Source: a virus (lineage: Duplodnaviria; Caudoviricetes). From it: a stretch of DNA of 57,670 nt. The position numbers and the translations under genes were made by a program. Of this stretch, positions 9,561 to 45,325 are shown piece by piece (the first letter of the stretch is position 1; every line of letters begins with the position of its first letter). Under the pieces are notes generated by a model. The model saw nothing but the letters and a program-made list of their open reading frames with translations. It searched no databases and was not told where the DNA came from. The stretch is taken from positions 1 through 57,670 of IMG/VR virus record IMGVR_UViG_3300011338_000368, one strand, 5' to 3'.

Positions 9561-9749
9561 ATGGATAAGCAGTTAGAAAAATTTATAAATTGGGTGAACG
9601 CAGAAATGGCAGAAATTAATGCAGCCACGGATTCTATCTACGAGTCATTGGCGGATAGAGATGACAAGTTAGTCACCAAATCTGTGATTACACTACAGAA
9701 AAAAATAGCTACATTAGCTGAACGATATCAAGCAAAGAAGCCTATCTAA
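9561..9749 (+). CDS. hypothetical coiled-coil protein
   Basis: 62 aa; TAATTTTG lies 4 nt before the ATG; stop overlaps the convergent giant gene's stop. Confidence 0.65.
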   Translation: MDKQLEKFINWVNAEMAEINAATDSIYESLADRDDKLVTKSVITLQKKIATLAERYQAKKPI

Positions 9750-12700
9750 GGCTTCTTCGCTGGTATTTTTCTACCTTGAAGTATATAATTTGTATACACT
9801 TCTGGGTAATCTAAAACTTTATCATTGTCTTTAGGATTCTCTAATCTAACTGGTTCTCCTCCACTATAATTTCTTGCATTTTCTATATTCTTAATAATAT
9901 TATCCATATCAGAAGGAGATAGTATTTTGTCTTGTAGAGTTTTATCTGCAATAGCATCAATAGTTTTCCCTGAAGGTAACACACCCGTTACAGTAAGTGC
10001 TGCGATTATTATATTCTTTGCCATCATTGCTTTTACAGGTTTTTGTTTTTCTAATAAAGCATCCCTCTCGTTTAATAGTTCATAATATTTTGATTGCGAA
10101 GACTCTTCTCTTGGAACCTTAACACCCTTCTCGTGGTTTTCAATCTTCTTATTAACCTCTCTTAATCTATCGCCATATTTATTATCAAACATTCTATATC
10201 CAGTTACAGCTGCTTTAAAGAATGGATTAAAAACACCAGTATTATCTATAATGAAATTTAACTCTGGGTCTTTCCTAGTCCTATCAATCATTTTTGAGTA
10301 CATTATACCATCCCTATACTTATTGTATGGGTCAGATGAGATTGCAGGATGAATAAATTTCTCGTTAGCATACTCAACGGCTGGTGCCATAAATAAATTA
10401 CTAAATATAGCTCCAGAATTTCTACCTAAGATAATACCTACAGCTGATTGAGCTGCCCCTTTGTTAAATGAATGTGACATTGTTTCCTCTGGCGCTGCTG
10501 CTTTTGTTGCCTTCTCTATAAACTCTTTATCATAAGTTCTCAAAGAAGTGCCCATACTTACATTGTCTTTTATACCTGTAATACTTCCTTGTATTCTAGG
10601 CATAGTACCAACCCATTTATACTTAGCGGTTCCATCGGTTATAATTTTACCTGATGTATCCGAAGGAGGATTGGTAGATGTTACACCACCTGTTACAACT
10701 TCATATATGTTACCTGCGGATATAATTTTCTTGCCAGCAGTTACTGTTGATTTTTCAGCCCAATCATCACCCTCTATATTCATATAGTCAAGTTGCAACC
10801 TTGCTCTTCTTCTTCTTTTCTCTTCTGAGTCATCACCACCTGTTATGCCGTTTACAATAGCAAATCCTAATCCTGTTAAAAGTAATAATACCTTTGCTCT
10901 AACAGAGTTATATACCCCTCCTCTCGCTAAGATAGCTGCCAATAGTCTAACACCTCTTGCTCTATCTATCTTCCCACTCTTTATAAGCGCATACGCTGCA
11001 TCCATACCTACCTGATTTTCATTTTTAGAAAACGACCTTAAAAATCCATCAATACTAGTCATGAAGCTATTGTAATCTCTTCTAACGGATTCTTTAGCCA
11101 TACCTACAAATGGATTTTTACTACTTGCTATATCAACAATAACCCTATCTGCTTCTGTTGTAGCTTTCTCTAATGCATCTTTATATTCTTCTAAATAATC
11201 ATAATCTTTTTTTATTATTTTTTCTAAATCAATTTCAGTACCAGTTTCTTTTTTAAATTCTAATCTCAATGTCCCTTCCCAAGCCATTCTTCCAACAGCT
11301 AAATCTGGTGCAGTAACTAAAAAGTCTGATACTGCTTCGCCACCTTTTTGTGCTTGTAAAAGTGAATTATAATACACTACTTGTGCGACATTACTAGCGC
11401 CATCAATAAAGTGCTTCTTGTCTCTTACATCTATATCAAAACTATTCGGGTCTAAGAATGCTCCAGATTGGCCTTTGTGTGGGTATAATCTATCAATACT
11501 ATAGCTATCAAGAGCTTCCATAGCTTGTGATAATTCAAAGTTTCTTTGGTATGCATTATTTTTTATACCTTCTAATATGTTTTCAGTATATGCAATACCA
11601 GCAAAAATTGCGTTACCTGCAAACTCGGCTGGGGCTTTATCTATCTTAGCAAGCATATATCTAGCACCAACTTTCTTTATATAATTAAATACATCAGTCC
11701 ATACTTTATCGGACATTACAAAACTTCTATTTATAATAGAATCTGTTATCTCTTTAAAAACAAACTGTAGTGATTTCGCAACATCATTAGCCTTCTCATC
11801 ATCAGCCGTGTCTTCTACTAATTTATCAAATATAGCCTCAACAGTTTTGATTGGATTTAACAAACAATAATCCATCATAACATCTCTGTTCGCAGCATTA
11901 AATGTATTGTATGGGTCAAGGGATACTGCATGAGCCGTACCATCTCTTTCTATAATAGTCCCAGCTTTGGTAGTTCCTTTAGCGAATACTTGTGAAGCAC
12001 TTGGAGGTGTAGCAGATAAAGATGTTTGTTGATTTATTACGTTTAACATCATGTAGTTTGCTCTTGGATTAAATGGAACTCCTCTAAGAGATACCGCAAC
12101 ATGTTGAGCGTATGGTGTTAGCTTTTCATAATAACTAGCTAACATCTCAGCTGCATTCTTTTCAACCTCACTAAAGCTATCCCATATTTTAGCCGTGTCT
12201 ATTTTTACTTCTCCAGTAGTCGCATCTGTTATAGAAAATTCTTCAATTAATTTTCTTAATTCAGCTTTATCTTTTTTAGTTAAATTACCATCTTTCAATG
12301 TTTTTTCAAGATGCATCATTGCAGGTATTACTTCTCTATTTCCAATATTTGACTCATACTCTAGTTGTAATTTGTACATTGTCATCTTATAGCAATGCTG
12401 TACTGCTTTATACATATTACCATTAAATGATGCTAATACTTTTTGGAAGATAACATCGGCATCCATTGAGTTTATTTTAAACAAGTATTTTGCATAACCA
12501 CTGGCCAATGCTTTAAACGTATTGTTAAATACATCATTGTTTTTAAAGTTGCCAATTAGATTATCTATCCTTCTAATTGATTGGTTCATGAAGTAAGCCA
12601 ATGTTTTACTAAAGTCTTTCGGGCTGTCTCTATACCAAGTCTTATTGTCAAACCACCCTCTTAACTTAGCCTTCTGTTCACTAAACCACATTAAACTAAC

Positions 12701-15700
12701 GCTTGTTAGCTTAGGCATGATGGCCTTAACCCCCTTATTAATGTTAGACTTTACCTGTTGATTATTTAAAAGGAATGGTATCTTGCCCATATCAGCATTT
12801 TTTACAAAGTTGTCAAGTGCCTCCACAGCTGCTATCTTCTCAGCCATAGTCTCAAAGTCATCAATAGATAACTTTAAAAAGTTTTTCAATTGAGCCATCT
12901 CTGCATCTGTTAAAACAGCACTAGGAGCTACCGCCTTTGCAGCCTGTAATAAACTATCGTGCTCAGATGCTAAGTACTCTAAAGCTTTTTCTTCATCTAA
13001 TGGCTCTACAACTCTAGTTGTTGTAGGATTATTCGCATCATAAGTTTCTTGCTCTGCCATAGCTCTATTAAGATAGTCTAGCATCTCATTAACATCTATT
13101 GCTTTTCTTATCTTTACTCCATTTTCTTTTACACCAACTAAAGCATCTTTTATTTTCTTTGCTGCTTCTAAGTGTGCATCAATATCAGAAATAGCCTCTG
13201 GGTTTATTTTGGCAAAACTTAAAGCTATAGACCTTGTATCTGGTGGTATAGCATTATTGCTAGCCGCTCTCTTCATTGCTGCATTTAGGGCTCTTGCTTG
13301 AGCTACTTTATCTGCGTATTCTGCATCGTTAAATATCTTGCTAGCATAGTCCAATACGCTATTAACTGAGTCTTTATTAGCAGTGTTCATGTTACTGAAC
13401 TTGTTAATCAATGCCTTTGCAGATGTTATAGATATCTTCTTACCTTTAGCTAAACCTTTTATTATTTCTCCAATTTTTTTAACTGCATCTTCGATAGACT
13501 TAGCTCCATCATTGGCGGCTTTTATCTCTAGTCTTATCTGGTCTTTTAATGCCGTAACTTCGTTTACAGAAATTATATTTTTATTTCTAGGCTCAATGAC
13601 TCTCTTCTGAACAATACCCTTAGTCTTTAAGAAATCAATAATTGCATTCTCTCTTTCGATGTCATCTGTTTGTTCATATAGCTTACTAGATTTAATTATA
13701 TCAACAACTTTTCTAGCTAATGCTTTTACATCTAGTTTATCTATTTTTGTTTTCTTAGCTTCTTGATTAAACGTATCGTTTAATATGTCAGATACTCTTG
13801 ACTGTTTAGATTTAATCGTTACTGCATTTTCATCAAACACCACATAGTTAAATCCTCTAGCTGTTTCTGACGTTGCACCTTTTGATACGCTTTCAGCAGG
13901 ATATTTTATACCATCAATGCCTGCTCTAAGCATAAATAATGATGCCTCTTTCATGGCTGCATTCAAAAAAGAAATTGATTGGCTGAATTTAATTCCTTTA
14001 TTTTGAGATATTATTGTACCTATCTCTCTATATATATCTTTTGATAATGGATTATTTTTCTTAATTAAATCTTTATTTATATTAACATTTTCTTTATTTG
14101 CCTGCTCTGATATTTTATTAAGTTGACTATCAGTTAACGGCTTATCCCACTCTAACCAAGTATATTGTTCAGGTGTTTTACCTTCGTGAATAGTAACTTC
14201 ATAAAGTTTTTCTTTATTTTTCCCATCATTATATGTTTCTATTAAAGATAAGGCTTCATCCCTTTGTTTATCTAAACCTTTAATAGTATTGTCGTTTACA
14301 TAATTTATTAAATCTTGTTTTGTAGGGGCTCCTTTTGTACTTGAAATTGCATCCTGCAAAAGACCTAAAGTCTTAGCTGAAATATTATTTTTACCAAACT
14401 TTTTTTCTATTGACAGTATATTTAATGTTTTACCATTAAAATTAGGTAATTTTTTTGTCAATGCTTTTGCATATCCTTCTGCAATAGCTTTTAAATCAGT
14501 AAAATATAATCCCCAACCAAATGCTTGTGCACCTTCTCCAGTACCTATTGCATCTGTAGTAAACTTATCAAAACTATGTGGACTCCCATGCCAAGCTGTT
14601 ACAGACTGTTTAGATTTAATAACCTCTTTGCTTGGTATTAAAGATGCTGTTGGCTCTTTAGCAATAGATATATTTCTAGCTTCTTTAATAGCCCCTTCGT
14701 AATCATCAGTATATTCTCCATCAGATTTATTGTACTCAGGGAATTTACCATAGTTCTTACCTATGTTTTCTCTGCTTCCCCCATCCCAATATAAAACAAC
14801 AATATCAGGTTTTGATTTCAATATAGTATTTTCCCATCCTGCTTCTGCGTATTCTGGATTAAACTTAATACGTTTATAAGGTTTAAACCCAAACTTAGAA
14901 TAGTATTCAGGAAGGAATGTATCATAAGCATCTGCATATCTAGCCCCAAGCTTTATAGAAGTTAGCAATAATGGTTTCAATAAGTTCTTACCTTCAGCAG
15001 ATGTATTCTTAAACCCACCCCCAGCATTACCATCAGCATAAACCATCATCCCAACTTTACCATCTTTTGTGATTAAAAGTCTTCCTCCTTTATCTATTAT
15101 TTCTTGGATTTTTTCTACTGGTTTAAGTTCAACTTGAATACCTGCTAGCGTATCGCTTTCTTTAGCATTTTTCATTGCTGTATAGAACGCTGAAGCATCA
15201 TCTATTTCATACACTTCACTTCCTTCAACTACATATTTATTTACTGGCTTAACTGATTTACCTTCAATAGTTACGACATCGCCATAAGCATTTTCTGTTG
15301 CCCAGTCTGGTAAGAATCCTATTTTTTGTTCTGCAAATGGTCTTTCATTAGCTGACAAATATCCTTTATCACCTTTCTTCTTAATAGAACCATCTGAGTT
15401 TCTCATGTGCTTCCCAAAATTAACCCATGAGTTTTGACCTCTAGTAGTAGCAGTCAAAGCTTTTTGTGCTAATCCAGTAAACATACTCATGTGATTACGC
15501 CAAGCATTCTCTTCCCCTGTGGCTCCAAAACCATTACCAAATTCATTATGGCCAAATAGGTCATGTACACCTCTTATCAACTCAACATTTGTCATAGGTA
15601 TGCCATTCGCATCTTTATACCCACTATCTTGTAATCCAATGTTTTCTTTGTCAAAAGTTCTGTCAGTCCCAAAACTTTTTGAAGATGGGTCTATGAATAT

Positions 15701-18700
15701 TCTTTTAGTTTTGCGAACATCATCAACCATTGCTTTACTATTACTATTGTAACCTTCCCCTTCATTCGCAATTTGGAACTTATATCCTTTTGACATCAAT
15801 GCATCTGCCTGACTCTTAATTTGTGTTATAAGGTCTGCAAACCCTTTCTTTACAGAAGGGTCATTTGGAGAATGCTTCATTTGGTCATAAGCATCAGCAA
15901 TTCTTTTACCATCTTTATCAGATACTGCAAATGTCATATTTGGAGTATTTGTACTAAGATTATTCTTACGCTTATAGCTATCAGAAATTTCCGAAATACT
16001 ATTATCTCTACCAATAAATATATTAGTACTTATTAAATTATCTTCATTACTTCTTGACTGCTTAGATTTAATTTCACCACCATTATACTTATCTGCTAAC
16101 TTTTTAGGAACACCTCTTGACAAAATAGGATGCTCCATAATGTCTTTAGCAGTAATATCTTTTATACCATAAAATGCGCTTCTGTATTTCTCACTGTTTC
16201 CATTTGCTTTAGATGCAGCTGCATTGTATATGTCTTGGTTTAATTTTTCATCTACAGCAGCAGTTGATAGGCTTCCATTGGTTCTCATCTGCTTAGTCAA
16301 TGCAGCATCGATAGTAAGCGCCTTAGGAGACTCAGCACGGTACCCATTACCCCACTTAGCGACAACCATATCAAAACCATTCTTAGCTGCTAATTGAGCA
16401 ATAAAATCGGCTTGTCTGTTAGGAGAAAATGCTTGACCTTTTGAGTGAGCTTCTGAGTTTTTCTTAGCCTCATCAAACAATCCTAAAACATCTTTATTGA
16501 AACTATATACTTTATCGGCTGGAACTCTTACAACATTTACTTTTCCGCCAACCATTCCTTCTCTATCGCTCTCGTTAGTGTAGTAGTAGTTAGCTGTATA
16601 TACACGCTTATCGGTTGTATATGCCTTTGGTGTTCCTTTCCTTGCGTCTATTTTAGAACCCTTAATATCACCATAATGGAAGAATAATAAATCACCATTA
16701 TCAGCAACCGTCATAGACTTCATGTCAGTTGCAGTAAGACCCCCTCTTGACTGCTTAGAACCCATCTCTGGAGCTCCAGATTTTTGTGACTGTGAACGTA
16801 GTTTTGTATTACCTAAGTTACCAGTTCTAATAGCATCTACTAGAGAAGAGAAGTATCTAACTGTATCATTACTATTTTTAACATTTTCAAATGGCTTTAA
16901 TTTCCCATTGGTAATTTTTAGCACTATTTTATTGATAGCTTCAGCAATGCGTCTGAATACATTAGGTTCTATTTTCTCGCTATCTTTTAATATTGCCCCT
17001 AATTGTACGAGATACTCTTCTGGCTGCTCTGTATCATCATAAGCCTTTATAAATTCTTTTAATTTTGCATTTTTAGTGAAACCAACACTTTTAGCTACCT
17101 GATTTTTTAAGTCTTCAAATGTTTCAGGTTTATCTCCAAGTTCAGAGAGTAAAATAGGGTGTATAGCTTCATGGATAACTGTTGTAACTGAAGCATTTGG
17201 ATGTGATAAGTTAATATCTATACGAACAGTATACTTTCCATTGCTATCTTTTATATATGCAAAATTTCCATCTGTCGTGGAAGCTTCTTTCCCATTTGCT
17301 GTAGCATCTAAAACTTTTTGGAAGTCATTACTATTTTCATGGAAGTGAATTTCTAAGTCAGGGAATAATTTATTTAATACTTTTAATGCTGTTTTTGCAG
17401 CCGTAAATAAAGGAACATGAACTTTGCTGGTAGGCGCTCCCTCTGAAGCTTTTATACCAACTGGTAAAGAGTCAAATACTGTTCTAGTCTTAGGTGTTTC
17501 TTTGATGGATTGTTCTGTTACTTTTTTCAAATTACGATTATCCCACAACGCTTTAGCTTCTTTTGATTGTTTATTTGGCGAAGGCTCTAATTCAATACCT
17601 TTTCGTAATTCTATGAAATCATATACCTTACTTGCAAGTCCTCTTCTTCTATGCTTTTCATTAATTCTTATATTCTCCAAAAAATTAGCATCGGCACTTA
17701 GTTGTGCTTTGCCAATTTCATTTCCATTTGCATCTTCAATTACAAATGTGTTAGTATTTCCATTCTCATTTATTTGAGACAAAGTGTATTTAGTGCCATT
17801 TGCATCCACTACTTGCCTTGCTACATAAATATCTACACCTGCTTCTTTGTTAACCCTCTGTGCATCTAATTCTTGCTGCTTCACATCTCCCACTACACCA
17901 ACACTACCTTCTTTTTCTTTTTCTAACAACGGAGTAATTAACTTATCATATTTAGCATAAACCTCATCAAATGCTTTTCTATCTGCATTGTTTGTAAGCT
18001 TAGTCCTATCTACCTTACCATATACTCTATATTGGTCTGCATTTGGTATTTTTTCATCAAGTTCTGCTTGCTCTTCAGTTCTTAGTCTTTCTACTTCAGT
18101 AATAGAAGTGCTATTGTCTTTTTGGTTGTCTTTACCATTTTCCTCTGTTGTTTGTTGAGTAGTTACATTATTACCATTATTTGTTGATTTTAACACTGGT
18201 AATCGTATTGCTACACTTTCTATAGTAATCTGACCTGAATCATCTGTTTTCCTAATAACATCATTTTCAGTAAGGCCTAATTTGCTCAATAGAGGAGCAA
18301 GTTGTTTCTTTATTTTTTCAAAATTTTGTTGTCTTTTAGCTTCTGTATTGCCTAAGTCTACAACATTAAAATCTTTCTTATCTTGCTCATTATTATTTAC
18401 AGCTGATAGTTCAACTTTATTCCCTGATACATTTATAAATACTTCTTCTGTCACAGGATTCCCTGATTCGTCAGTCAATATCTCATATCCTCTATTTAGC
18501 TGTTCTGCATAAACACCTAAACCATCTGTAGATATATTTGTTTTTTCAGTATATTCATGTCCTGCTGGCAATAATCTCTGGGCTTCAGAAATCATTGTTT
18601 TAAAGTTTTTGGTATTGCCTGATTTATTCTCCATTTTAGAAGTCCATCTTTCAGTAGCCTTACCATTTTCATATACTCTAACATACCCAACAAAATCGTT

Positions 18701-21700
18701 ATTAGACGTGCCTGTCATAATAACATCTACTATACCACTAGTAGGGTTTGTATACTCAGTTATTCCAATGCCATTTACTTCTCTATATGATGATATTTTA
18801 GATTTTTCATTACTACCACCAACCTCCATTGAGTTTTTAGTTTCATCAGGGAATAATTCAGTGTTTGGCCTGCTATCTATTGCCTCTTTACTATTAGCAT
18901 TTTGTGTGGTAAATATTCCTTCCTTCTTAATCTTATCAATAGTCTTCTGGTCTGTAACAGAAGTGCCATCCTCTAGTTTTATGTTACCATCTTTATCTTC
19001 AACATATAACTTGCCTTCAAACTCATAAGTACCAACGCCATCTATCGTTTTAGCAGGTGTTGTTGTTACAGTACCATCTGCGTTAGTAGTTACTACTTGA
19101 CCATTGTCGACAGCCGCTACTGTTTCTAAACTAATAGCTTGAAGCTGCTTGTTAATTTCAGTTATTCTTTGTTTTTTTGCTAATGTTAAATTCTCATCCT
19201 TACCCTTTACCTCTTGCTCAATAGCCATTCTTTCTTTAATTAAATCGAATGACTTCTTTTGATTCTCAACAGATATATCGGTAGGTATTTTACTCGCTAT
19301 ATATCCAAATTCCTTTACACCAGCTAAATATGCCTTACCCTCATCTAAAGTTATTTCTTTGTTGGCTATTTTTAATTTAATATCTGTAACCCAACTTTTC
19401 ATAACAGCAGGGTATTGTAATGCTTGTCTAACTAATTCAAACTGTTTATTGTTTATTGACTCAACCTTAATCTTATTAACAATCGTATGTCCAGCAGTTG
19501 ATACAGCCCCAAAAACAAATCCACCAACCATACCAGATTTTAAACTTTCCCAATATGCATTTACACTATTATTTACATCAAAATGTTTTTCTTTTAATAT
19601 GTTATTAACTATACTATTGTTTACATTATTTGTTACATCTTGTAGTACATTCTCAAACCCTTCAATGGTAGTTTGCTCTAATAATATTCCAGCTGTTTTT
19701 ACAAAGTTTTCAGAAATATATTTATTTAGCCCTACCTTATTTACCCCACTTTGGATAAAGTCTGAAAACATTTTAGCTGATATTAATTCCTTTGCAGCAA
19801 TTTCACTACCTGCTTTTTTAGTAAGGCCTACCCATGCCATTGATTTACCAAAAGCTTTCATGCTAATGTTTTCAATATACCCCTGAACCATAGCATTAGG
19901 CAATGTTGTTGCTAATAATTGATTTATAGTTAGGTTTGCATTCCTTGGGTCATTTAAAGCTGCTGGAATTTTTTCTCCAAGTATTTGAAGTGCAAATATT
20001 TCAGCTGCAACTGGTTGCAATGCTGGAACCATACCTAATGCCATAGCAGGAACAGACCTAGGAAGTTGCATTAGTATACTACCAATACTCCCTTCTTCTA
20101 TTTTTTTCTGAACGTACTCATCGGATACATTTGCTTTAAATATGCTAGAAGCAGATTTTAATTGGCTGGCAAATTCTATTATATCTTTCTTCTGTTGCTC
20201 ATCAATATTTCTAACTACCTCATCTCCTTGGAATAACCCTTTAATATTCTTATTTACAAAATTATATCCGAATGGTTTCAGTGGGTTTGAGAATCCAAGC
20301 CCAATAGTTTTCTCTAAAGAATAAAGACCATTTAATATGTCTTCCCCTCCAGCTACGAAATTGTTCCATGCTGCACCAGTAAGACTTCCTCTTGTTGCTT
20401 TTGCATCAAATACATGCCCAGCATATACTTTATTTATTGTACTAAGTGCTGATACTGTATTATTTTCTTTAGATAAATTATCCCTTAATGCATCTAGTCT
20501 ATCTAGCTCTTTGTTATTTTCTTCGGTATAACCCTCTTTAGATATTTTATTTTTTAAATTATCATAGCTTAAAGTATAGTCATTAACCTTTTTCTCTAAA
20601 TCTCTAATAGATATGTTCACAAGATTTCCTTGTTCTTCAAGGTCTTTTGTATATTTTTCAGATAACACATAAGATAAATTCCTGTCTACTTGGTAGGATG
20701 GTTGCTCTTGGTAAGGTCTATTTGCATCTGTTGCAGTTACTGTATATGTCTGAGCAGGTGCAGTAAATGGCTTAGACTTAACATTAGCAGTTGGAGGTGT
20801 AGGAACTAATGAAGGGTCTAACTGCTTTAAGTTCTCTATAATTAATTTACCTTTTGGATTTTTATCTAAATCAGATATACTTGCTCTAATTGCATCTCTT
20901 GCTGCTTTTTCTTCTGCTGGAGTTATTTTTTTTGCAGGATAAACTATTTCGTTGCCGCTTACTCTAGCACCCAATACCTCGTATGGTTTGTATTGCGCAT
21001 CTACAGGCCTAGGAAGCCCTAGTGAAGCGTATGGATTCCCTGTAGGGTTAGCATTCCAATCCTCAACAGCTTTCTTTTTTGACTTGTATGTTGATATTTC
21101 TTTGTTTATTTTCTCTAAAACTAACTTAGCTTCACCTTTTGTTTTTGGTAGTGTGTATCTACTACCAGTAGCCCTGTTATATTCAGCTACAGATTTAGAT
21201 GCTTCTTTAACTTGCTTTGCCTCAAACTTTTTAACTTCTTCCGCCTGCACTTTAGCAGCAGCAGCTTTTAATTTCGGGAAAATAAACTGATACTCTTCAT
21301 TCGTCTTTACTATTGGAAACCTTTCCTTTTCTGGAAGCTTACTATTTAACTCAGCTATAGTAGAGTTGTTTTTCTTTAATTGCTTTTCATTGTATGCATC
21401 CCATTTTGCTACATGCGTTTGGTCGTAGTCCTCAACTGACTTAAATGGAGCTATACCATACTGTTTGGCTAATTTATTTGTATTAGCTAACCACTCGTCT
21501 TCATTCTTTTTATTAATTGCATTATCAATAGGGTCTGTTATACCACTATTAAAATCCCATAACTTTTCTACTGGGGTAAACTTTATTCCAGTACTTTTCG
21601 ATTTTTCAGCATATTCTTTGTTTAGCTTATTTTTAAGTTTTTCTTCTAAGAAATCCTCTTCTTTAGGGGATACAATGTCATCATATTTTTTTGGTTTGTA

Positions 21701-22381
21701 TCCTAGTGCGATAACTTCTGGGTTATCCTTCACTTGTTCAAATATTGAGTTCCAAGTTTTAGCCGCCATAGCAACCTGCAACTTTGCCATGTGCTCTGGA
21801 GTAATATCTTCAGAGGATGCTACATCTGGTAACTCTGGAATAGATTGCCTTTGCTTCTTGTACTGTACATAACTAAGCTTTTTAGGGTCTACCTCATCTA
21901 TGCTATTGGCAATGGTAAGACTTGGGTCGTTTAACTCTGTTACTGCGGTATTGTATTGGGTTAAAGTTTCTTTATTATTATTTTCAACTATTTTATTCTC
22001 TATCTGGTCTCCTAGCTCGTAGTTTATGGAAGCAAATGGACTATTGTTCCCAGCTACATCAAGTGGCTTGTATGTAATTCCAACTAGCTTACCCTTTGTA
22101 TATTTATCCTTGTTATAAATATCTGCATATTGATAGCCTAATCCAGCTAACTCATCGTCTGTTACGATGTCGGTGTCTGCCTTTGGTTTTAGGTTAAACT
22201 TAGCGACTTCTGGGGTGTCTTTAACAGCGTTTAATAGCTCATTGTAGTACCGAGCTCTTTTAGCCGTTTCATCTATCTCCTCAGTTGGGGTAATAGCCGT
22301 TGGCTCACTATAAGGCAATGCATTGCTCTCGCTGTATGTTGTGTTTCCTTTAGGGATAACTTCTCCGTCTTGTAATTCCAT
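9746..22381 (-). CDS. giant virion-injected polyvalent protein (GNAT, zincin HExxH, ADP-ribosyltransferase-like modules)
   Basis: 4211 aa, last gene of the virion operon; IRINEKHRRRGLASKVY (GNAT), VIHEAIH (zincin), AWHGS..F..F..GLYFT..GIDGIKY..NYVVFD (ART-PolyVal-like), HDLFGH, DAYDTFLPEYYSKFGF (GNAT-like). Confidence 0.8.
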   Translation of the reverse strand: MELQDGEVIPKGNTTYSESNALPYSEPTAITPTEEIDETAKRARYYNELLNAVKDTPEVAKFNLKPKADTDIVTDDELAGLGYQYADIYNKDKYTKGKLVGITYKPLDVAGNNSPFASINYELGDQIENKIVENNNKETLTQYNTAVTELNDPSLTIANSIDEVDPKKLSYVQYKKQRQSIPELPDVASSEDITPEHMAKLQVAMAAKTWNSIFEQVKDNPEVIALGYKPKKYDDIVSPKEEDFLEEKLKNKLNKEYAEKSKSTGIKFTPVEKLWDFNSGITDPIDNAINKKNEDEWLANTNKLAKQYGIAPFKSVEDYDQTHVAKWDAYNEKQLKKNNSTIAELNSKLPEKERFPIVKTNEEYQFIFPKLKAAAAKVQAEEVKKFEAKQVKEASKSVAEYNRATGSRYTLPKTKGEAKLVLEKINKEISTYKSKKKAVEDWNANPTGNPYASLGLPRPVDAQYKPYEVLGARVSGNEIVYPAKKITPAEEKAARDAIRASISDLDKNPKGKLIIENLKQLDPSLVPTPPTANVKSKPFTAPAQTYTVTATDANRPYQEQPSYQVDRNLSYVLSEKYTKDLEEQGNLVNISIRDLEKKVNDYTLSYDNLKNKISKEGYTEENNKELDRLDALRDNLSKENNTVSALSTINKVYAGHVFDAKATRGSLTGAAWNNFVAGGEDILNGLYSLEKTIGLGFSNPLKPFGYNFVNKNIKGLFQGDEVVRNIDEQQKKDIIEFASQLKSASSIFKANVSDEYVQKKIEEGSIGSILMQLPRSVPAMALGMVPALQPVAAEIFALQILGEKIPAALNDPRNANLTINQLLATTLPNAMVQGYIENISMKAFGKSMAWVGLTKKAGSEIAAKELISAKMFSDFIQSGVNKVGLNKYISENFVKTAGILLEQTTIEGFENVLQDVTNNVNNSIVNNILKEKHFDVNNSVNAYWESLKSGMVGGFVFGAVSTAGHTIVNKIKVESINNKQFELVRQALQYPAVMKSWVTDIKLKIANKEITLDEGKAYLAGVKEFGYIASKIPTDISVENQKKSFDLIKERMAIEQEVKGKDENLTLAKKQRITEINKQLQAISLETVAAVDNGQVVTTNADGTVTTTPAKTIDGVGTYEFEGKLYVEDKDGNIKLEDGTSVTDQKTIDKIKKEGIFTTQNANSKEAIDSRPNTELFPDETKNSMEVGGSNEKSKISSYREVNGIGITEYTNPTSGIVDVIMTGTSNNDFVGYVRVYENGKATERWTSKMENKSGNTKNFKTMISEAQRLLPAGHEYTEKTNISTDGLGVYAEQLNRGYEILTDESGNPVTEEVFINVSGNKVELSAVNNNEQDKKDFNVVDLGNTEAKRQQNFEKIKKQLAPLLSKLGLTENDVIRKTDDSGQITIESVAIRLPVLKSTNNGNNVTTQQTTEENGKDNQKDNSTSITEVERLRTEEQAELDEKIPNADQYRVYGKVDRTKLTNNADRKAFDEVYAKYDKLITPLLEKEKEGSVGVVGDVKQQELDAQRVNKEAGVDIYVARQVVDANGTKYTLSQINENGNTNTFVIEDANGNEIGKAQLSADANFLENIRINEKHRRRGLASKVYDFIELRKGIELEPSPNKQSKEAKALWDNRNLKKVTEQSIKETPKTRTVFDSLPVGIKASEGAPTSKVHVPLFTAAKTALKVLNKLFPDLEIHFHENSNDFQKVLDATANGKEASTTDGNFAYIKDSNGKYTVRIDINLSHPNASVTTVIHEAIHPILLSELGDKPETFEDLKNQVAKSVGFTKNAKLKEFIKAYDDTEQPEEYLVQLGAILKDSEKIEPNVFRRIAEAINKIVLKITNGKLKPFENVKNSNDTVRYFSSLVDAIRTGNLGNTKLRSQSQKSGAPEMGSKQSRGGLTATDMKSMTVADNGDLLFFHYGDIKGSKIDARKGTPKAYTTDKRVYTANYYYTNESDREGMVGGKVNVVRVPADKVYSFNKDVLGLFDEAKKNSEAHSKGQAFSPNRQADFIAQLAAKNGFDMVVAKWGNGYRAESPKALTIDAALTKQMRTNGSLSTAAVDEKLNQDIYNAAASKANGNSEKYRSAFYGIKDITAKDIMEHPILSRGVPKKLADKYNGGEIKSKQSRSNEDNLISTNIFIGRDNSISEISDSYKRKNNLSTNTPNMTFAVSDKDGKRIADAYDQMKHSPNDPSVKKGFADLITQIKSQADALMSKGYKFQIANEGEGYNSNSKAMVDDVRKTKRIFIDPSSKSFGTDRTFDKENIGLQDSGYKDANGIPMTNVELIRGVHDLFGHNEFGNGFGATGEENAWRNHMSMFTGLAQKALTATTRGQNSWVNFGKHMRNSDGSIKKKGDKGYLSANERPFAEQKIGFLPDWATENAYGDVVTIEGKSVKPVNKYVVEGSEVYEIDDASAFYTAMKNAKESDTLAGIQVELKPVEKIQEIIDKGGRLLITKDGKVGMMVYADGNAGGGFKNTSAEGKNLLKPLLLTSIKLGARYADAYDTFLPEYYSKFGFKPYKRIKFNPEYAEAGWENTILKSKPDIVVLYWDGGSRENIGKNYGKFPEYNKSDGEYTDDYEGAIKEARNISIAKEPTASLIPSKEVIKSKQSVTAWHGSPHSFDKFTTDAIGTGEGAQAFGWGLYFTDLKAIAEGYAKALTKKLPNFNGKTLNILSIEKKFGKNNISAKTLGLLQDAISSTKGAPTKQDLINYVNDNTIKGLDKQRDEALSLIETYNDGKNKEKLYEVTIHEGKTPEQYTWLEWDKPLTDSQLNKISEQANKENVNINKDLIKKNNPLSKDIYREIGTIISQNKGIKFSQSISFLNAAMKEASLFMLRAGIDGIKYPAESVSKGATSETARGFNYVVFDENAVTIKSKQSRVSDILNDTFNQEAKKTKIDKLDVKALARKVVDIIKSSKLYEQTDDIERENAIIDFLKTKGIVQKRVIEPRNKNIISVNEVTALKDQIRLEIKAANDGAKSIEDAVKKIGEIIKGLAKGKKISITSAKALINKFSNMNTANKDSVNSVLDYASKIFNDAEYADKVAQARALNAAMKRAASNNAIPPDTRSIALSFAKINPEAISDIDAHLEAAKKIKDALVGVKENGVKIRKAIDVNEMLDYLNRAMAEQETYDANNPTTTRVVEPLDEEKALEYLASEHDSLLQAAKAVAPSAVLTDAEMAQLKNFLKLSIDDFETMAEKIAAVEALDNFVKNADMGKIPFLLNNQQVKSNINKGVKAIMPKLTSVSLMWFSEQKAKLRGWFDNKTWYRDSPKDFSKTLAYFMNQSIRRIDNLIGNFKNNDVFNNTFKALASGYAKYLFKINSMDADVIFQKVLASFNGNMYKAVQHCYKMTMYKLQLEYESNIGNREVIPAMMHLEKTLKDGNLTKKDKAELRKLIEEFSITDATTGEVKIDTAKIWDSFSEVEKNAAEMLASYYEKLTPYAQHVAVSLRGVPFNPRANYMMLNVINQQTSLSATPPSASQVFAKGTTKAGTIIERDGTAHAVSLDPYNTFNAANRDVMMDYCLLNPIKTVEAIFDKLVEDTADDEKANDVAKSLQFVFKEITDSIINRSFVMSDKVWTDVFNYIKKVGARYMLAKIDKAPAEFAGNAIFAGIAYTENILEGIKNNAYQRNFELSQAMEALDSYSIDRLYPHKGQSGAFLDPNSFDIDVRDKKHFIDGASNVAQVVYYNSLLQAQKGGEAVSDFLVTAPDLAVGRMAWEGTLRLEFKKETGTEIDLEKIIKKDYDYLEEYKDALEKATTEADRVIVDIASSKNPFVGMAKESVRRDYNSFMTSIDGFLRSFSKNENQVGMDAAYALIKSGKIDRARGVRLLAAILARGGVYNSVRAKVLLLLTGLGFAIVNGITGGDDSEEKRRRRARLQLDYMNIEGDDWAEKSTVTAGKKIISAGNIYEVVTGGVTSTNPPSDTSGKIITDGTAKYKWVGTMPRIQGSITGIKDNVSMGTSLRTYDKEFIEKATKAAAPEETMSHSFNKGAAQSAVGIILGRNSGAIFSNLFMAPAVEYANEKFIHPAISSDPYNKYRDGIMYSKMIDRTRKDPELNFIIDNTGVFNPFFKAAVTGYRMFDNKYGDRLREVNKKIENHEKGVKVPREESSQSKYYELLNERDALLEKQKPVKAMMAKNIIIAALTVTGVLPSGKTIDAIADKTLQDKILSPSDMDNIIKNIENARNYSGGEPVRLENPKDNDKVLDYPEVYTNYILQGRKIPAKKP
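13795..16759 (-). repeat. four dispersed copies of a 16-22 nt junction repeat encoding (I)KSKQS(R)
   Basis: + strand: CTCTTGACTGTTTAGATTTAAT 13795-13816; GACTGTTTAGATTTAAT 14604-14620; TCTTGACTGCTTAGATTTAAT 16052-16072; CTCTTGACTGCTTAGA 16744-16759. Confidence 0.85.
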
Positions 22382-23842: not shown

Positions 23843-24505
23843 TTATTTCTTCTTTTTACCACTATATCCCATCCCAGTGAAACCATCCAATAGATTAGTT
23901 CCACCAAGACCAAAACCTTCCTTAGGGTCAGAAAGTGCCAAACTAGATGGAGTATATGAACCACCAGAGCCTGTTCCAGCTGCTTTATATTTAGCAACAC
24001 CTAAAGACGTTAGGTTTTGAGTAGCTCCACCAAGAGCTTGTTGGAACTGAGTAGCTCCCTGAGCTGCGGCTAACTGAGCGCCTTCCATTTGAGAAGCCTC
24101 TAGCTGTCTTTGGAAGTTATAGTAATCGTTATCTATTTGCTGCTGAGTCTTTTGCTTTTCTAAACTTAAATTAAGCGCATCTTGTGCCTTCCTAGTTGTT
24201 AAGTCCATCTCAGCATTTTTTATACCACCCTGAATAGTTCCAACACTACCCAACACAGCAGCAGAACCAGCCTCTCTAGCAGCATCAACCATGTTAGCTG
24301 ATTGCTGGTTGATATTGGCCTGTGCTTGGTCGTACATGTTTACAGGAACACCAACTGCATTCATAGCGTTGGCTTGTTTCGGCATATTTTTTAACTTATT
24401 GTATGATGCTTCTGCGGCTTGTCTAGCTTTCTTTTCTTGGACTAATCCAGCTACTCCTTGTATTGCGCTTAGTCCTAGCCCTACGGCTGCTAATTCTACT
24501 CCCAT
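23843..24505 (-). CDS. putative ejection (pilot-type) protein
   Basis: Hydrophobic G/A-rich N-terminus and Q/A-rich helices, typical of podovirus internal proteins. Confidence 0.6.
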   Translation of the reverse strand: MGVELAAVGLGLSAIQGVAGLVQEKKARQAAEASYNKLKNMPKQANAMNAVGVPVNMYDQAQANINQQSANMVDAAREAGSAAVLGSVGTIQGGIKNAEMDLTTRKAQDALNLSLEKQKTQQQIDNDYYNFQRQLEASQMEGAQLAAAQGATQFQQALGGATQNLTSLGVAKYKAAGTGSGGSYTPSSLALSDPKEGFGLGGTNLLDGFTGMGYSGKKKK

Positions 24506-39699: not shown

Positions 39700-42120
39700 C
39701 TACCTCGGTTCAAACTCTCCAAGACTAAATCCGTCTAAAGAATCCTCGTTTGACTCAAAGTCTACAGCAGATGCTTTGTTTTGTCTTTGCTCTATTAATT
39801 TTGATTGCTGTGTTGCTTGTATCTTTGTTCTATTATCTTTAGCTTCCTCCTTCTTCATGTCTCTGCCATTAACTAACTCTATCTCTGCCTGCTTTAATCT
39901 CATCTGCATTTCAAACTCTTGGTTCATTAACTCAAGTTTTAATTGAGCTTCTCTTTCCATCTTGGCCATGTCTGCTTGAGATTGAGCTTGAATTACCTGC
40001 ATTTTAACCTGTGCTTCAATCTGTAGAGACTGAGCTTTTGCTTGGCTAGATGCTTGTGCTGATTGGATATTGCCTTGAGTTTGCTGCTCCATAGCCTGCT
40101 TCTGCTCATCCATTCGCTGCTTATCCCTTGACTTTCTTCTTTGCTTCAACAATTCGTTAGCAAGCTTTATATTTTTCATGTTTCGGATGTCAATAGCATC
40201 CTCAAGATTAATCTGCCCTACTTTCAATGCAACACCGATATTATTCTCTAATTGATTTTCTTGCTCTGAGTCTGGTGATACCTCTAAGAAAATTCCGAAG
40301 CTATGCAATGGCAATGATTTTATCTCGTCTAGCATGTCGTAATTATACTTACCAATCTGCATTGCGAACTCTTCTCTATTGTCAGAGTACTCTAACACAT
40401 CAGCAATCCTGTATGATATAGCCTCACTTAACATCTTTGTAATATATACGCTGGCATTTAGAATATGCCTAGTCGCTGTGTTACTATTTGCAGCAGCTAA
40501 CTTTTGAAGCCCAACCAAGCTATTTGGGTCAGGAGTACTTGCATCTCTTGCTTCGTTTAACCCTGTCACATCTCTAATCATACCTAAGTAGTGATTATAG
40601 GTGCTAGTTAAGCTATTTATTTTACCTTGTCCATTGTTACTGTTTAACTCTTGGATAGGTATTTTACCATGATTCAATTCGCCATCCTGAGTATATGAAC
40701 GACCAATAACGCTACCCGTTGTGAAGTACATGTTTAATGCATCCTCTGGAGTATATGAGCCACCGTTACCTAAGTCAACTTCATTAATACCATCTGCATC
40801 TATAAACACACCATCTGGAACAATTCTGCTTAATACCTGCTGCAACTTTAAATGCGTCATCTGTATTAAGTCTGCAAAAGGAATCATTCGCTTAGTCAAA
40901 GACTCAATCTCTCCCTTATAAATTCTTGGTGCACATGCTACATAGTTTGAATAGGTCTTTTGAATTGCGGCATCTGGTCTTACCATATTCTTACAAAGCT
41001 CCCATTTGATAAGCATATTTGACCCTAGCGTCATTACGCCTTCATACCACACCTCAATCTTCTTATCTAGCTTTTCAAAATTCTCATTTGGCTCTGGATT
41101 AAAACTATCATCTTTCTTAACTACCTTCTCTCCTCCATTGTTTAATTTCTTTTTCTTATGGACAATGCTGTTAGTTGTTTTATAATTAAAGTATAGTAAT
41201 GTTACAGTATCTTTTTGGAACATGCTATCTCTATATTTTGCCATTCCTATGTAGTAATCACCAAATTCTTGTCCGCCTCTTACCGCTTCCTCTAACTCTT
41301 CTTCATCCATATCTGGGTCTAACTTCAATAACTCGCTTACATGTACAGTCTTAACTTCTCCCCAATAAAAACAATCAGAGAATGTAGGAGACTCTGTATA
41401 TGAATGAACGACTGTTGCTGGGTCAACATATTCAATCCTAATTCCATCATTAATATTAAATGAATGTTTAGCTATCCCAATTCCAAGGGTTGTTAAGTCG
41501 TAGTGAAACTTATCTCTTAGATTTTCATAGTTGTTTAATTCAAAAATTGTATCAATAGCTGTCTCCTCAGCTATTTCTATTCTTGGCTTATATTTCATTT
41601 GCATGAATAAAGAAAGCTCATCATTTGTTTCTGGCAACTCGTCTGGTGGAACCTTAAAAGTATCAACACCAAAATTCTCCTTTATAGCCATTAATACAGG
41701 CTTTGCTATCATTTGAGACTTAATCATTTGCTGATACTTGTTTCTTTCATCAGCAGACATAGCGTCAACAGCTCTAGCCTTTGTACTAAAAGTTCTATCA
41801 GACATCCCATTTACAACAATATCAACAAACTTTGGAATAATAGGAACTGGAGTCCAGTCCATGTTTATATGTGACAAGTCTTCCCCAAACCCTTTTTTAT
41901 ATTTCTGAATAGGCTGCTCGCCTCTAGCATATAATCTAGTATTATGGAAATCTGTCCATCTAGTAAAAAATTTGCAAGTACCTCCGCCTTCCTGAAACCA
42001 TTCGTGCTGTATTGCTTTACCTATTTTTAATCCGTATTCTTCAGTAGCTTTTACTGAGTCTTTTGTATTTACACTTGGGAATGGTTGTTTCGGAATTGAT
42101 ATATTTTTTTTATCTCTCAT
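39700..42120 (-). CDS. portal protein
   Basis: RLYARGEQPIQKYK, DWTPVPIIPKFVDIVVNGM, IRDVTGLNEARD; Q-rich C-terminal coiled coil; follows terminase. Confidence 0.85.
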   Translation of the reverse strand: MRDKKNISIPKQPFPSVNTKDSVKATEEYGLKIGKAIQHEWFQEGGGTCKFFTRWTDFHNTRLYARGEQPIQKYKKGFGEDLSHINMDWTPVPIIPKFVDIVVNGMSDRTFSTKARAVDAMSADERNKYQQMIKSQMIAKPVLMAIKENFGVDTFKVPPDELPETNDELSLFMQMKYKPRIEIAEETAIDTIFELNNYENLRDKFHYDLTTLGIGIAKHSFNINDGIRIEYVDPATVVHSYTESPTFSDCFYWGEVKTVHVSELLKLDPDMDEEELEEAVRGGQEFGDYYIGMAKYRDSMFQKDTVTLLYFNYKTTNSIVHKKKKLNNGGEKVVKKDDSFNPEPNENFEKLDKKIEVWYEGVMTLGSNMLIKWELCKNMVRPDAAIQKTYSNYVACAPRIYKGEIESLTKRMIPFADLIQMTHLKLQQVLSRIVPDGVFIDADGINEVDLGNGGSYTPEDALNMYFTTGSVIGRSYTQDGELNHGKIPIQELNSNNGQGKINSLTSTYNHYLGMIRDVTGLNEARDASTPDPNSLVGLQKLAAANSNTATRHILNASVYITKMLSEAISYRIADVLEYSDNREEFAMQIGKYNYDMLDEIKSLPLHSFGIFLEVSPDSEQENQLENNIGVALKVGQINLEDAIDIRNMKNIKLANELLKQRRKSRDKQRMDEQKQAMEQQTQGNIQSAQASSQAKAQSLQIEAQVKMQVIQAQSQADMAKMEREAQLKLELMNQEFEMQMRLKQAEIELVNGRDMKKEEAKDNRTKIQATQQSKLIEQRQNKASAVDFESNEDSLDGFSLGEFEPR

Positions 42121-45100: not shown

Positions 45101-45325
45101 TGGTATTTCATGAGGAACCCATATACCTTCTTCGTTAGCTTCACATTTTTTTTCTTTTGGCAAAGCTATCAATAAATCATTTATATTATAGATATCTCCA
45201 ATTGTTCCATCCTTAGATATTACAATTATGTCAAACTCTTTATTGTACCCATAAGTCCACATGCTCCTAGAATTTCTGGAAGCTTTTACGCTTGATGGTA
45301 CTATATCTTTTTCTATCTTGTACAT
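42110..45325 (-). CDS. terL: terminase large subunit (intein-containing)
   Basis: Walker A KNRRSGFS, Walker B LLQDE|SGKW split by an intein, MGSTSN coupling motif, RNase H-like GCDSYD ... DASISSG. Confidence 0.92.
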   Translation of the reverse strand: MYKIEKDIVPSSVKASRNSRSMWTYGYNKEFDIIVISKDGTIGDIYNINDLLIALPKEKKCEANEEGIWVPHEIPKELASIKSQAEWNVRTNEFKSKYIDYIEGEFDKRANGHWFLNKGIPTYLTGSHYMYLQWTKIDVGLPEFRESNRIFYIFWEACKADNRCYGICYLKNRRSGFSFMSGSECSNIGTITRDARLGILSKTGADAKKLFTEKVVPMGLNYPFFFRPIQDGMDRPKMEISYRVPASRLTRKTMFSTDEEELDGLNTVIDWQSTTDNSYDGAKLKFLLQDECYDPETLILASDWTFKKIKDLKIGDKVFVEGGIEKIIVNKTEGITDTYRIKQPYGKDYVVTENHRLVLNHYYNKGHKEVIMTPKEYMSSSRFKKQHLTRVTSNGIESDDKNITIPPYLLGMWLGDGRQSAFTILVNKDEEPELLAYLGRIAEMRNIDFELKKSTSKKIVEFAFKGINKELRDIGVYNNKHIPDIYMQSSIEARLQLLAGLVDTDGYSDHKKGSIELGMSRKDLIEQIRFLALSCGLSCSNIKHKISNFNTDVYRICISGDLSIIPILTEKKSFDNYKPKTKGRRNKVDVEYIGKGNYVGIQVDGENDNERKLILEDFTVSLNSGKWVKPENILNNWKVTKTCLRLGKNIVGKCMMGSTSNALSKGGAEFKELFEKSNPRVRNNNGQTTSGLYALFIPMEWNFEGYIDKWGFPILEVEKGKSVETSDGEFVSIGVIEHWNNEVESLKNDSDALNEHYRQFPRTESHAFRDESISSLFNLTKIYQQIDYNEGMIEGRTLTRGYFSWYNGEKDTKVIWTPDNKGRFLVSWIPPAHLQNNVAVRNNLRYPLNEHLGIFGCDSYDISGVVGGGGSNGALHGLTKFHMEQVPTNHFFLEYISRPQTAEIFYEDVIMAIHFYGMQILAENNKPRLLYHLKNRGYRPFSMNRPDKPLAKLSVTERELGGIPNTSEDVKQAHADAIQTYIEKYVGYDLDGTYRNSEDIGDMFFNKTLQSWAKFDINNRTKFDASISSGLAIMAGQRHLYVPKTENTKISIKFAKYDNSGRTSQILNNER
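43457..44452 (-). mobile_element. intein (332 aa) with LAGLIDADG homing endonuclease
   Basis: Starts CYDPETLI, block B VTENHRL, LAGLIDADG motifs YLLGMWLGDG and LLAGLVDTDG, ends EDFTVSLN followed by Ser +1. Confidence 0.92.

Follow-up and report, generated by a model that had tools for sequence, protein, structure and literature searches.

A short junction peptide at the borders of cassettes in a giant phage protein: boundary of cassette exchange and candidate cleavage site of an upstream zincin

What is the role of a short peptide that recurs at the borders of successive modules within one giant phage protein? This question is raised by an open reading frame (ORF) of 4211 amino acids (aa) in a stretch of 57,670 bp (hereinafter the window, that is, the whole stretch of DNA that was analyzed), which comes from an uncultured, ~58-kb podovirus-like phage whose virus record is listed as 94% complete. 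The original prediction, made from this DNA, was that the repeat is a recombination junction for payload modules and/or a cleavage site for the zincin metallopeptidase of the same protein. The reading we favor, with a probability of roughly 0.6, combines the two: a polyvalent protein encoded in the virion operon, whose cassettes are exchanged at the junction and whose junction peptide would be the recognition or cleavage site of the gluzincin encoded directly upstream.

The junction repeat in the window and in close relatives

The elements of the giant gene are, in window coordinates (identifiers with L, P and X denote relatives and contigs introduced below):
9746..22381, minus: giant ORF P0001, 4211 aa, consisting of a constant N-terminal part, the zincin, the cassette array and a constant C-terminal part
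17585..17755, minus: weak GNAT-like stretch, aa 1543-1599 (Pfam Acetyltransf_7, E-value (E) 0.004, 17.9 bits, below the cut-off of 27)
16802..17464, minus: predicted zincin metallopeptidase domain, aa ~1640-1860, with HEAIH at aa 1737-1741 (17159-17173), Y1781 and E1788/E1789
16748..16759, minus: junction J1, partial (MG-SKQS-RGG, aa 1875-1878), between the zincin and m00; nucleotide identity to L005 jumps here
16073..16747, minus: cassette m00, 225-227 aa (FFHYG...YYYT), present in all nine arrays (94-100% aa identity); candidate ART-PolyVal-like domain
16055..16072, minus: junction J2 (E-IKSKQS-RSN, aa 2104-2109); homology to L004, L005 and L007 stops in or just past the SKQS codons
14621..16054, minus: cassette m06, 478-480 aa, with an HDLFGH domain and a second domain (DAYDTFLPEYYSKFGF); the P0003 and P0007 versions are 99% identical
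14603..14620, minus: junction J3 (V-IKSKQS-VTA, aa 2588-2593); the X15 and X17 contigs depart from the window sequence exactly at 14603
13817..14602, minus: cassette m09, 262-264 aa, ART-PolyVal-like (WHGS...GLYFT...NYVVFD)
13799..13816, minus: junction J4 (T-IKSKQS-RVS, aa 2856-2861), where the last cassette meets the constant C-terminal part
9749..13798, minus: constant C-terminal part m01, 1350 aa, 58-94% identity among relatives

A pattern scan of the window detects three copies of the 17-mer ATTAAATCTAARCAGTC on the minus (coding) strand, at 13800-13816, 14604-14620 and 16056-16072; under shuffling, the mean is 0.07 copies and at least three copies are reached in 0 of 100 shuffles, and there is no further copy in the whole 57,670-bp virus record. 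Upon translation, these copies yield the full junction peptides TIKSKQSRVS (aa 2858), VIKSKQSVTA (aa 2590) and EIKSKQSRSN (aa 2106), and a fourth, partial junction reads MGSKQSRGG, with SKQS at aa 1875; all four are in frame, and a peptide stretch that spans a junction is GGEIKSKQSRSNED. The expectation for SKQS in the 4211-aa protein is 0.06, and the four copies observed are reached in 0 of 20,000 residue shuffles. Outside the giant ORF, a single SKQS is encoded among the window ORFs of at least 50 aa, at position 8563 of the plus strand in a 120-aa ORF, and looks like a chance occurrence. The scan and the translation thus bear out the claim that four in-frame junctions, three full and one partial, are located at module borders; the repeat coordinates given originally were correct to within 1-5 nucleotides (nt), and those of the modules agree with the inter-junction segments 16073-16747, 14621-16054 and 13817-14602.

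The domain labels that were first attached to these modules fared unevenly. Cassette m09 matches Pfam ART-PolyVal (PF18760) with E 6e-06 and 27.5 bits, under the 31.2 cut-off, over profile positions 10-66 of 140, such that the ART-PolyVal label can be kept tentatively; a 41%-identical version of m09 is present in P0004, and neither P0003 nor the X15/X17 contigs retain the cassette, which is missing or replaced there. For m00, the ART-like label draws on a language-model lead in the ESM Atlas (0.92, 178 of 256 features; ART-PolyVal in 25 of the 30 hits), whereas Pfam gives no match. The GNAT-like and HDLFGH labels of m06 found no confirmation in Pfam, where this cassette has no match; it matches phrog_3170 and phrog_2563, its two halves have separate matches in unrelated phages, and the N-terminal half retrieves only unnamed viral clusters in the ESM Atlas. 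The constant C-terminal part shows a weak match to phrog_6005 ('virion structural protein') and a distant one to a 'structural protein' of Elemovirus. An AlphaFold2 (AF2) model of the zincin, J1, m00 and J2 built on a four-sequence alignment had a mean predicted local distance difference test score (pLDDT) of 39.7, too low for use.

Relatives were collected from IMG/VR (four contigs), by a protein search with aa 1600-2120 (six close and five distant proteins) and by a search anchored on the C-terminal part (three more distant proteins); the close set consists of nine distinct proteins or arrays, namely, the window protein and eight relatives. These nine proteins contain 46 copies of SKQS (41 distinct 20-mers), all within one central region, with the junction consensus x-[EQ]-[IV]-[KR]-S-K-Q-S-[RKL] and an upstream flank rich in G, N, S, E and Q. 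When the proteins were split at SKQS and the pieces clustered, 17 segment families were obtained, in nine different arrangements in the nine arrays. The common plan includes a constant N-terminal part of 1456-1909 aa that ends with the zincin, m00 (in all nine), one to six variable cassettes and a C-terminal part of 1219-1473 aa, with three to eight junctions per ORF. The cassettes past m00 are:
Window: m06, m09
L004: m12
L005: m02, m07, m03, m11
P0003: m06
P0004: m13, m02, m09, m14, m03, m08
P0005: m15, m02
P0006: m02, m07, m03, m11
P0007: m06, m16, m03, m08
P0008: m02, m07, m03, m08

The length of a cassette is fixed despite different neighbors: 196 aa for m02 (five proteins), 351 aa for m03 (five), 480 aa for m06 (three) and 227 aa for m00 (nine). 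In seven protein pairs the C-termini are at least 90% identical, and in all seven the arrays differ. Additional domains found in the relatives are DUF3293/SAM-lyase-like and DUF7178 (Pfam) and PF01817 (precomputed annotation). The DUF3293 match lies in m02 (L005:6428-7009), a cassette absent from the window, at 37.7 bits, above the cut-off, with the S-adenosylmethionine lyase family just below it; m02 is a candidate anti-restriction payload.

Several peculiarities of the arrays are worth recording. Some cassettes carry conserved 'adaptor' segments around their junctions, of the form ...SEAYHKAKADGSNPELVKAVEEA-[junction]-RTEDALKDVESTAKALE... (P0004 aa 2567-2817; P0003 aa 2387-2480; P0006 aa 3259-3441); adaptor-like strings occur also in the distant members P0134, P0021, P0141 and P0101 (LVKAVDEAIG, then MKSKS, then QMPSVNEVSKAL; ...SVEETAKAL), and P0003 contains an 'empty' cassette of 93 aa that consists of nothing but adaptors. 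Mini-cassettes of 16-23 aa (LNIKQKESFE...) are located between two junctions in L005 (aa 3311-3326), P0004 (aa 3177-3199), P0007 and P0008; they may be what is left of deleted cassettes, or else peptides that are released. The N-terminal third of the window protein (17951-22381, minus strand; aa 1-1480) is a mosaic, too: compared with L004, it is 92% identical in the C-terminal part but only 35% over aa 1037-1567, and the N-termini form three clusters (m04, m05 and m10). A KQS-bearing string, PSPNKQSKEAKAL, is found at aa 1604, after the GNAT-like stretch. L006 and L008 belong to one IMG/VR contig of 62,470 bp in which the giant gene spans both contig ends, which suggests assembly of a circularly permuted or terminally redundant genome.

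Exchange of cassettes at the junction

To locate breakpoints independently of the motif, BLASTP was run for all 72 ordered pairs of the nine proteins and the ends of high-scoring segment pairs (HSPs) inside the arrays were mapped. Among the raw ends, 44 of 84 are within 10 aa of SKQS and 37 are beyond 25 aa; given that gapped BLAST overshoots into non-homologous flanks (as in the comparison of the window with L004) and blurs the raw ends, the test was redone with the ends trimmed to the first 12-column window with at least nine identities. After trimming, 149 of 152 ends fall within 10 aa of SKQS (119 within 5 aa) and the remaining three at 11 aa, compared with 9.8% of random positions within 10 aa, so that the module breakpoints among the homologues map to the repeat, as had been proposed.

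In L004, m06 and m09 are replaced by an unrelated 551-aa cassette, with homology to the window stopping ~6 aa past SKQS and restarting at IKSKQS, and with a 92% identical C-terminal part. In the DNA, identity gives way to non-homology inside or immediately next to the SKQS codons, at J1 and J2 as well as at the last junction. A replacement variant was found in a 9841-nt contig (run X15) and a 6593-nt contig (run X17) from two further freshwater/lake metagenome studies: both track the window from 17492 to 14603, the last base of the SKQS codons of J3, continue with 295 other nt where the window has the 820-nt ART cassette, and rejoin it at 13782; the replacement is of a length that fits the 97-aa 'adaptor-only' segment of P0003, a comparison of length only. 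These public runs thus support the exchange independently. The X11 and X13 contigs cross J3 in the same way as the window. Other short joints in the ART cassette (sides below 62 nt, likeness threshold 85) were not counted, since they probably stem from ART homologues of other organisms, and in a scan of metagenome contigs with m00, none of the 80 pattern matches was confirmed.

Cassettes are more alike than the backbones in which they reside. The window and P0007 versions of m06 are 99% identical, compared with 59% for the zincin and 60% for the C-terminus; m02 and m03 are 87-99% identical in backbones that are 58-85% identical, and for m00 every pair shows 94-100% identity. When the window is compared with L005, nucleotide identity climbs at J1 from ~0.72 to 0.95-0.97 and falls past J2. 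Given that the identity at third positions of identical residues follows the same course (from ~0.55-0.65 to 0.85-0.90 from J1, falling past J2), the likeness of the cassettes is not merely due to stronger constraint. Taken together, these comparisons of sequences show that the junction marks the border where arrays gain, lose, replace and reorder cassettes in frame, and indicate that cassettes moved recently, as DNA, between phages with more diverged backbones; payload swapping at the repeat, as originally envisaged, is therefore upheld by different cassette sets, breakpoints at the repeat, and cassettes that resemble each other more than the backbones do, at synonymous sites as well.

Is it the DNA or the peptide that is conserved at the junction? 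Codon choice had been described as conserved, and inside the window it is: when the three IKSKQS copies are compared pair by pair, 50 of 54 nucleotide positions are identical (P = 0.004, given the codon usage of the gene), and CAG, the minor Gln codon (28% of the Gln codons of the gene), is used in all four copies (P = 0.006). Across the relatives the claim does not hold. In the 19 copies for which DNA is available, SKQS is invariant and every codon varies: the first Ser is encoded by TCT (14), TCC (3) or TCA (2), Lys by AAG (12) or AAA (7), Gln by CAG (12, over-used compared with 28-31% in the gene) or CAA (7), and the second Ser by TCA (10), TCT (4), TCG (3) or AGC (2). Since a switch between TCN and AGC requires a non-serine intermediate or a double change, this pattern points to selection on the residue and argues that the SKQS peptide itself is under selection. 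Within one genome, the junction copies have nearly identical DNA, and in L005 two junctions share 33 nt with one mismatch; this likeness fits common descent or gene conversion and gives usable homology for recombination.

The zincin and the junction-type motifs of its family

A phmmer search against 1.84 billion representatives identified 227 homologues of the zincin at E <= 0.001, 128 of these at E <= 1e-10; among the best 150 of the 227, nearly all are 2000-4900 aa long. Across 146 aligned domains, H1737, E1738, H1741 and E1789 are 100% conserved, Y1781 99% and E1788 96%, that is, the predicted domain has the complete gluzincin catalytic set and is apparently active. The AF2 model of the zincin (25 sequences) has a pLDDT of 71.7 and a predicted template modeling score (pTM) of 0.69, with the tail from model residue 221, J1 included, below 50; in this model J1 is predicted to lie ~20 aa past the last helix of the domain. 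An exhaustive VIA-align search with the model placed zincins first: the catalytic domain of lethal factor (1yqy_A; Z 7.0, root-mean-square deviation (rmsd) 4.2, 158 aligned residues), followed by the Pro-Pro endopeptidases PPEP-2 (6fpc_A; Z 5.8, rmsd 4.0, 144 aligned) and PPEP-3 (9g0j_A; Z 5.1), with YbeY, HtpX and collagenases among the further matches. The model is thus consistent with an M34-like peptidase, homology not being established by it. Lethal factor and the Pro-Pro endopeptidases are endopeptidases specific for linear motifs, and the HExxH...Y-x6-E spacing of the window zincin presumably resembles that of these enzymes. A predicted complex of the zincin domain with a 36-aa J2 peptide scored 0.01 in a run without controls and speaks neither for nor against recognition, and none of the Pfam MPTase families, MPTase-PolyVal included, matches the giant protein.

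Motifs of the form S[KR][SQA][QS] or [KR][SG][KR][QSA][SQ] occur within 100 aa past the last conserved Gly of the zincin in 72 of 140 homologues, compared with 8.2% of random windows, at a median distance of 26 aa (interquartile range 20-34 aa). Elsewhere in the same protein, the 4-mer core next to the zincin recurs more often (56) than after permutation of the cores among the proteins (29.2 +/- 6.1), with 56 reached in 0 of 2000 permutations. KSK[QSA][SQ] is found 107 times in 144 giant proteins (0.74 per protein vs 0.044 in shuffled sequences), and 104 of 106 occurrences are downstream of the first HExxH.

A search for any 5-mer in at least three spaced copies was positive for 34 of the 144 family proteins of at least 1500 aa, compared with 1.0% of shuffles. 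Four of these 34 have tandem-repeat domains (SISLP, YYENG, TTVGN), ~7 seem to reflect chance or low complexity or are leucine-rich-repeat (LRR)-like, four contain the SKQS of the window clade, P0006 of the same clade is counted only by the non-junction 5-mer DKDGN, and ~18 have junction-like motifs of their own. The lineage motifs include MKSKSQ, PKSKQ[QS]L, KSKAQ[IM], LKSKSQ, SKSQ[IL], KSKSQ and GSRSQ, and further VKGKAS, AKGRKA, TTRARR, IKFQK, QASAG(GR) and EVGFQ. The same ART-type cassette end is followed by differing junctions in different proteins: ...VVFDENAVTI|KSKQS in the window, ...VVFDENAVTI|KSKSQ in P0054 and ...VFDDNAITIE|MKSKS in P0134. Comparison across the family thus shows a related peptide positionally linked to the conserved zincin. 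Distinct from the junction motifs, tandem repeats with a 22-aa period (SISLP, TTVGN, YYENG) or LRR-like NIDLP repeats are located downstream of the zincin in P0043, P0056, P0039, P0086 and P0110.

Readings of the junction, related systems and genome context

Under the favored reading, the mid-protein array would consist of self-contained enzyme cassettes, probably counter-defense payloads. Junction DNA would serve as portable homology for recombination between co-infecting relatives, given that 17-33 nt of near-identical DNA are common to all junctions within a gene, and the junction peptide would be recognized or cleaved by the gluzincin directly upstream, with the array cut into separate effectors in the manner of viral polyproteins, MARTX toxins or, at VENN, CdiA. 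Cleavage of the junction by the zincin is plausible, with circumstantial support from the selection on the SKQS peptide, the invariant catalytic residues in 146 homologues, the junction-type motif ~26 aa past the zincin in 72 of 140 homologues and the position of J1 in the low-confidence tail of the model. This reading makes concrete the idea of Iyer, Burroughs, Anand, de Souza and Aravind (2017; PMC5512222), who proposed autoproteolytic release by embedded metallopeptidases (MPTases), with the polyproteins of RNA viruses as the analogy, and pointed out the mosaicism and possible cassette recombination of polyvalent proteins; word searches of the main text of that paper found no description of a conserved junction or cleavage motif or linker. 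Literature string and keyword searches, with paper supplements outside their scope, retrieved no prior description of a KSKQS, KSKSQ, KSKAQ or IKSKQS junction. A more ambitious picture, which we advance tentatively and would sooner bet against than for, is that of a self-processing 'effector magazine', in which a zincin similar to lethal factor or PPEP reads a lineage-specific cut peptide fencing every cassette (SKQS here; SKSQ, SKAQ, GSRSQ or QASAG elsewhere), the protease and its site co-evolve, and cassettes are exchanged in an integron-like manner within one ORF, in frame, over the homology supplied by the DNA that encodes the peptide, among backbones only ~60% identical, the arrangement being widespread in more than 200 giant proteins of uncultured phages.

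A number of observations weigh against the favored reading. On the side of the zincin, the region has no Pfam, PHROG or PDB-sequence match, Foldseek found no PDB match to its model at E <= 0.001, and the best VIA-align Z of 7.0 is below 8, in a range that is possibly generic. On the side of the motif, KSK[QSA][SQ] is absent from 88 of the 144 giant proteins, no motif follows the zincin in 68 of the 140 homologues, and the regular expressions used for the family were built post hoc on the very proteins in which they were counted; no 5-mer is present in at least three spaced copies in 8 of 10 distant relatives, the Elemovirus protein included, and the giant protein of the cultured Elemovirus contains QEDAVQKQ twice only, with no S-K-x-Q motif past its zincin. 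Within the close set, the last junction is degenerate in two of the nine arrays (DKSKVYR in P0003, …DKSKVYRILNDTF; GKVLY in P0006, …ILGKVLYILNDTF), so that a junction is not indispensable; m06 comprises two domains with no junction between them; the HSP ends come from nine related proteins and are thus non-independent events; and the excess DNA likeness of the window copies also fits a purely recombinational origin.

The last point leads to the alternative that survives best, namely, that the junction is only a recombination scar or flexible linker, with DNA that is homogenized by repeated recombination or gene conversion and that guides the exchange of cassettes, the protein remaining an uncut, multi-enzyme polypeptide. 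The likeness of the window copies beyond codon usage, with CAG in all four, the 33 nt shared by the L005 junctions, the crossovers inside the SKQS codons and the tolerance of a degenerate last junction in two arrays are all as this alternative would have it, and N4 vRNAP, ArdC and TraC1 are precedents of proteins that have an MPTase yet are packaged or transferred uncut (PMC5512222). Against a mere linker, SKQS is invariant while all its codons vary, including the change from TCN to AGC serine; an S-K-x-Q/S peptide persists next to zincins that are 25-43% identical, where DNA homology is gone; and its spacing past the zincin is conserved. On balance we consider this alternative unlikely.

Somewhat less probable still is cleavage of the junction by a different protease, of phage maturation or of the host, with the zincin being an effector or a cell-wall or ejection enzyme. 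Effector roles for MPTases were considered by Iyer et al. (PMC5512222), a peptidoglycan-degrading function was proposed for the metallopeptidase of the 2811-aa virion polyvalent protein of phi24B (10.64898/2026.04.10.717836), and the results presented here do not physically tie the zincin to the junction. However, no peptidase family was detected near the giant gene in the 20 PHROG-scanned and 10 Pfam-scanned ORFs (8 in common; part of the 67 window ORFs of at least 90 aa), SKQS is absent from the other virion proteins, its sole other copy being in the 120-aa plus-strand ORF, and the position of the motif is tied to the zincin throughout the family.

A non-proteolytic role of the peptide, as a docking or threading signal for packaging and ejection of an unfolded chain or as a site of Lys/Gln cross-linking, seems quite improbable: Lys and Gln are invariant in a flexible context, and the protein has to traverse the tail channel, but no computed result speaks for such a role, which would leave the presence of the motif at every cassette border and directly past a protease domain unexplained. 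A chance or low-complexity repeat, to which a short, Lys/Ser-rich motif in a Lys-rich protein might be prone, can be dismissed given the DNA and protein shuffles, the trimmed HSP ends and the 46 copies in nine proteins, all at cassette borders.

How does the favored reading relate to known systems? Polyvalent proteins are giant phage proteins in which ART, GNAT and other conflict domains accompany a zincin-like metallopeptidase (PMC5512222), and the window protein likewise contains several unrelated conflict-type domains in one polypeptide (the zincin, the ART-PolyVal-like m09, the m00 lead and the weak GNAT-like stretch); what is added here is a defined junction peptide, mapped breakpoints, transfer of cassette DNA and the zincin-adjacent copy across the family. 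MARTX toxins have conserved termini, a central effector array, release by processing and a repertoire shaped by gene exchange (PMC5218395, PMC6731672, PMC5555677), and a recombination-variable central array between conserved N- and C-terminal regions is found in the window protein as well. Unlike the MARTX proteins, bacterial toxins that are secreted and contain RTX repeats along with a cysteine protease domain, it is a phage protein with a zincin and a strict short border consensus, and no Pfam families of RTX repeats or cysteine protease domains were detected in the 4211 aa at E <= 0.1. In CdiA, the short VENN peptide demarcates the payload and is the site of autoproteolytic release, with diversity generated by cassette recombination (PMC11630599, PMC3482391). 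A short conserved peptide demarcates variable payloads here, too, but CdiA has one C-terminal toxin with a cognate immunity gene, whereas up to eight tandem junctions with another peptide and another protease are present here in one ORF, the cassettes are internal with the constant C-terminus of 1219-1473 aa behind them, and there are no interleaved small ORFs. The internal proteins of T-even phages are diverse injected anti-defense proteins that share only a short conserved capsid targeting sequence (PMC3012670). They are encoded by separate small genes, in contrast to the single ORF described here. The T-even capsid targeting sequence is removed by the prohead protease gp21.

Lacking RTX repeats and a cysteine protease, immunity genes and a single C-terminal toxin, and being contained in one ORF, the system resembles MARTX, CdiA VENN and the T-even internal proteins and is a member of none; it is best classed among the polyvalent proteins, with an organizing element that is new and defined. 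Another such protein is phi24B gp47, a 2811-aa polyvalent protein with a metallopeptidase that was found by proteomics in the virion of a podovirus and proposed to be an ejection protein (10.64898/2026.04.10.717836); no junction motif or processing of gp47 is described in that preprint, and gp47 is not a detected homologue of the window protein. The M34 zincins, lethal factor and PPEP, provide the best fold matches for the zincin model, with Z below 8 and no sequence-level match.

Polyvalent proteins are thought to be a main route by which phages deliver counter-defense enzymes with their DNA, and the release of their domains and the diversification of their repertoires have so far been a matter of conjecture. 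The present analysis offers a candidate cleavage consensus paired with a candidate protease, and direct evidence, from comparison of relatives, for the transfer of entire payloads at a defined junction from one diverged phage to another. It also suggests a parsing rule for hundreds of giant 'hypothetical' phage proteins, which may be split at the junction motif of their lineage into functional cassettes, and the architecture could inform modular cargo delivery by phages in laboratory strains.

The genomic neighborhood identifies the window as a phage, with a terminase (42113-45325), a portal protein (39703-42120), several 'virion structural' PHROG families and tail proteins encoded on the minus strand. 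The giant gene is the last one in this terminase-portal-structural-tail operon, a gene context from which we infer that its product is virion-borne and injected. The closest cultured relatives are 68 Flavobacterium Elemovirus records, whose 'structural protein' of 3667 aa is 22-41% identical to parts of the window protein; when searched against 50,697 phage records, the 3.1-kb region had no blastn match and the zincin no tblastn match at E <= 1e-5. RecE/exonuclease VIII-like and SbcD-like exonucleases and a resolvase-like domain are encoded on the phage, and their involvement in cassette exchange is a matter of speculation.

Two ORFs directly upstream of the giant gene show matches to other phage proteins: 24925-25704 (minus) to the C-terminal domain of the crAss-virus muzzle protein (42 bits, above the cut-off of 27) and 23846-24505 (minus), weakly, to the internal virion protein gp14 of T7 (E 0.003, below the cut-off). 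The terminase large subunit (minus strand) is unusually long, 1071 aa, with the match mainly over aa 292-1065 and the N-terminal ~290 aa outside it. The phage also encodes a chaperonin pair, GroEL at 52338-53924 (minus; phrog_5725, E 3e-128) and a GroES-like protein at 45594-46112 (minus; phrog_13932).

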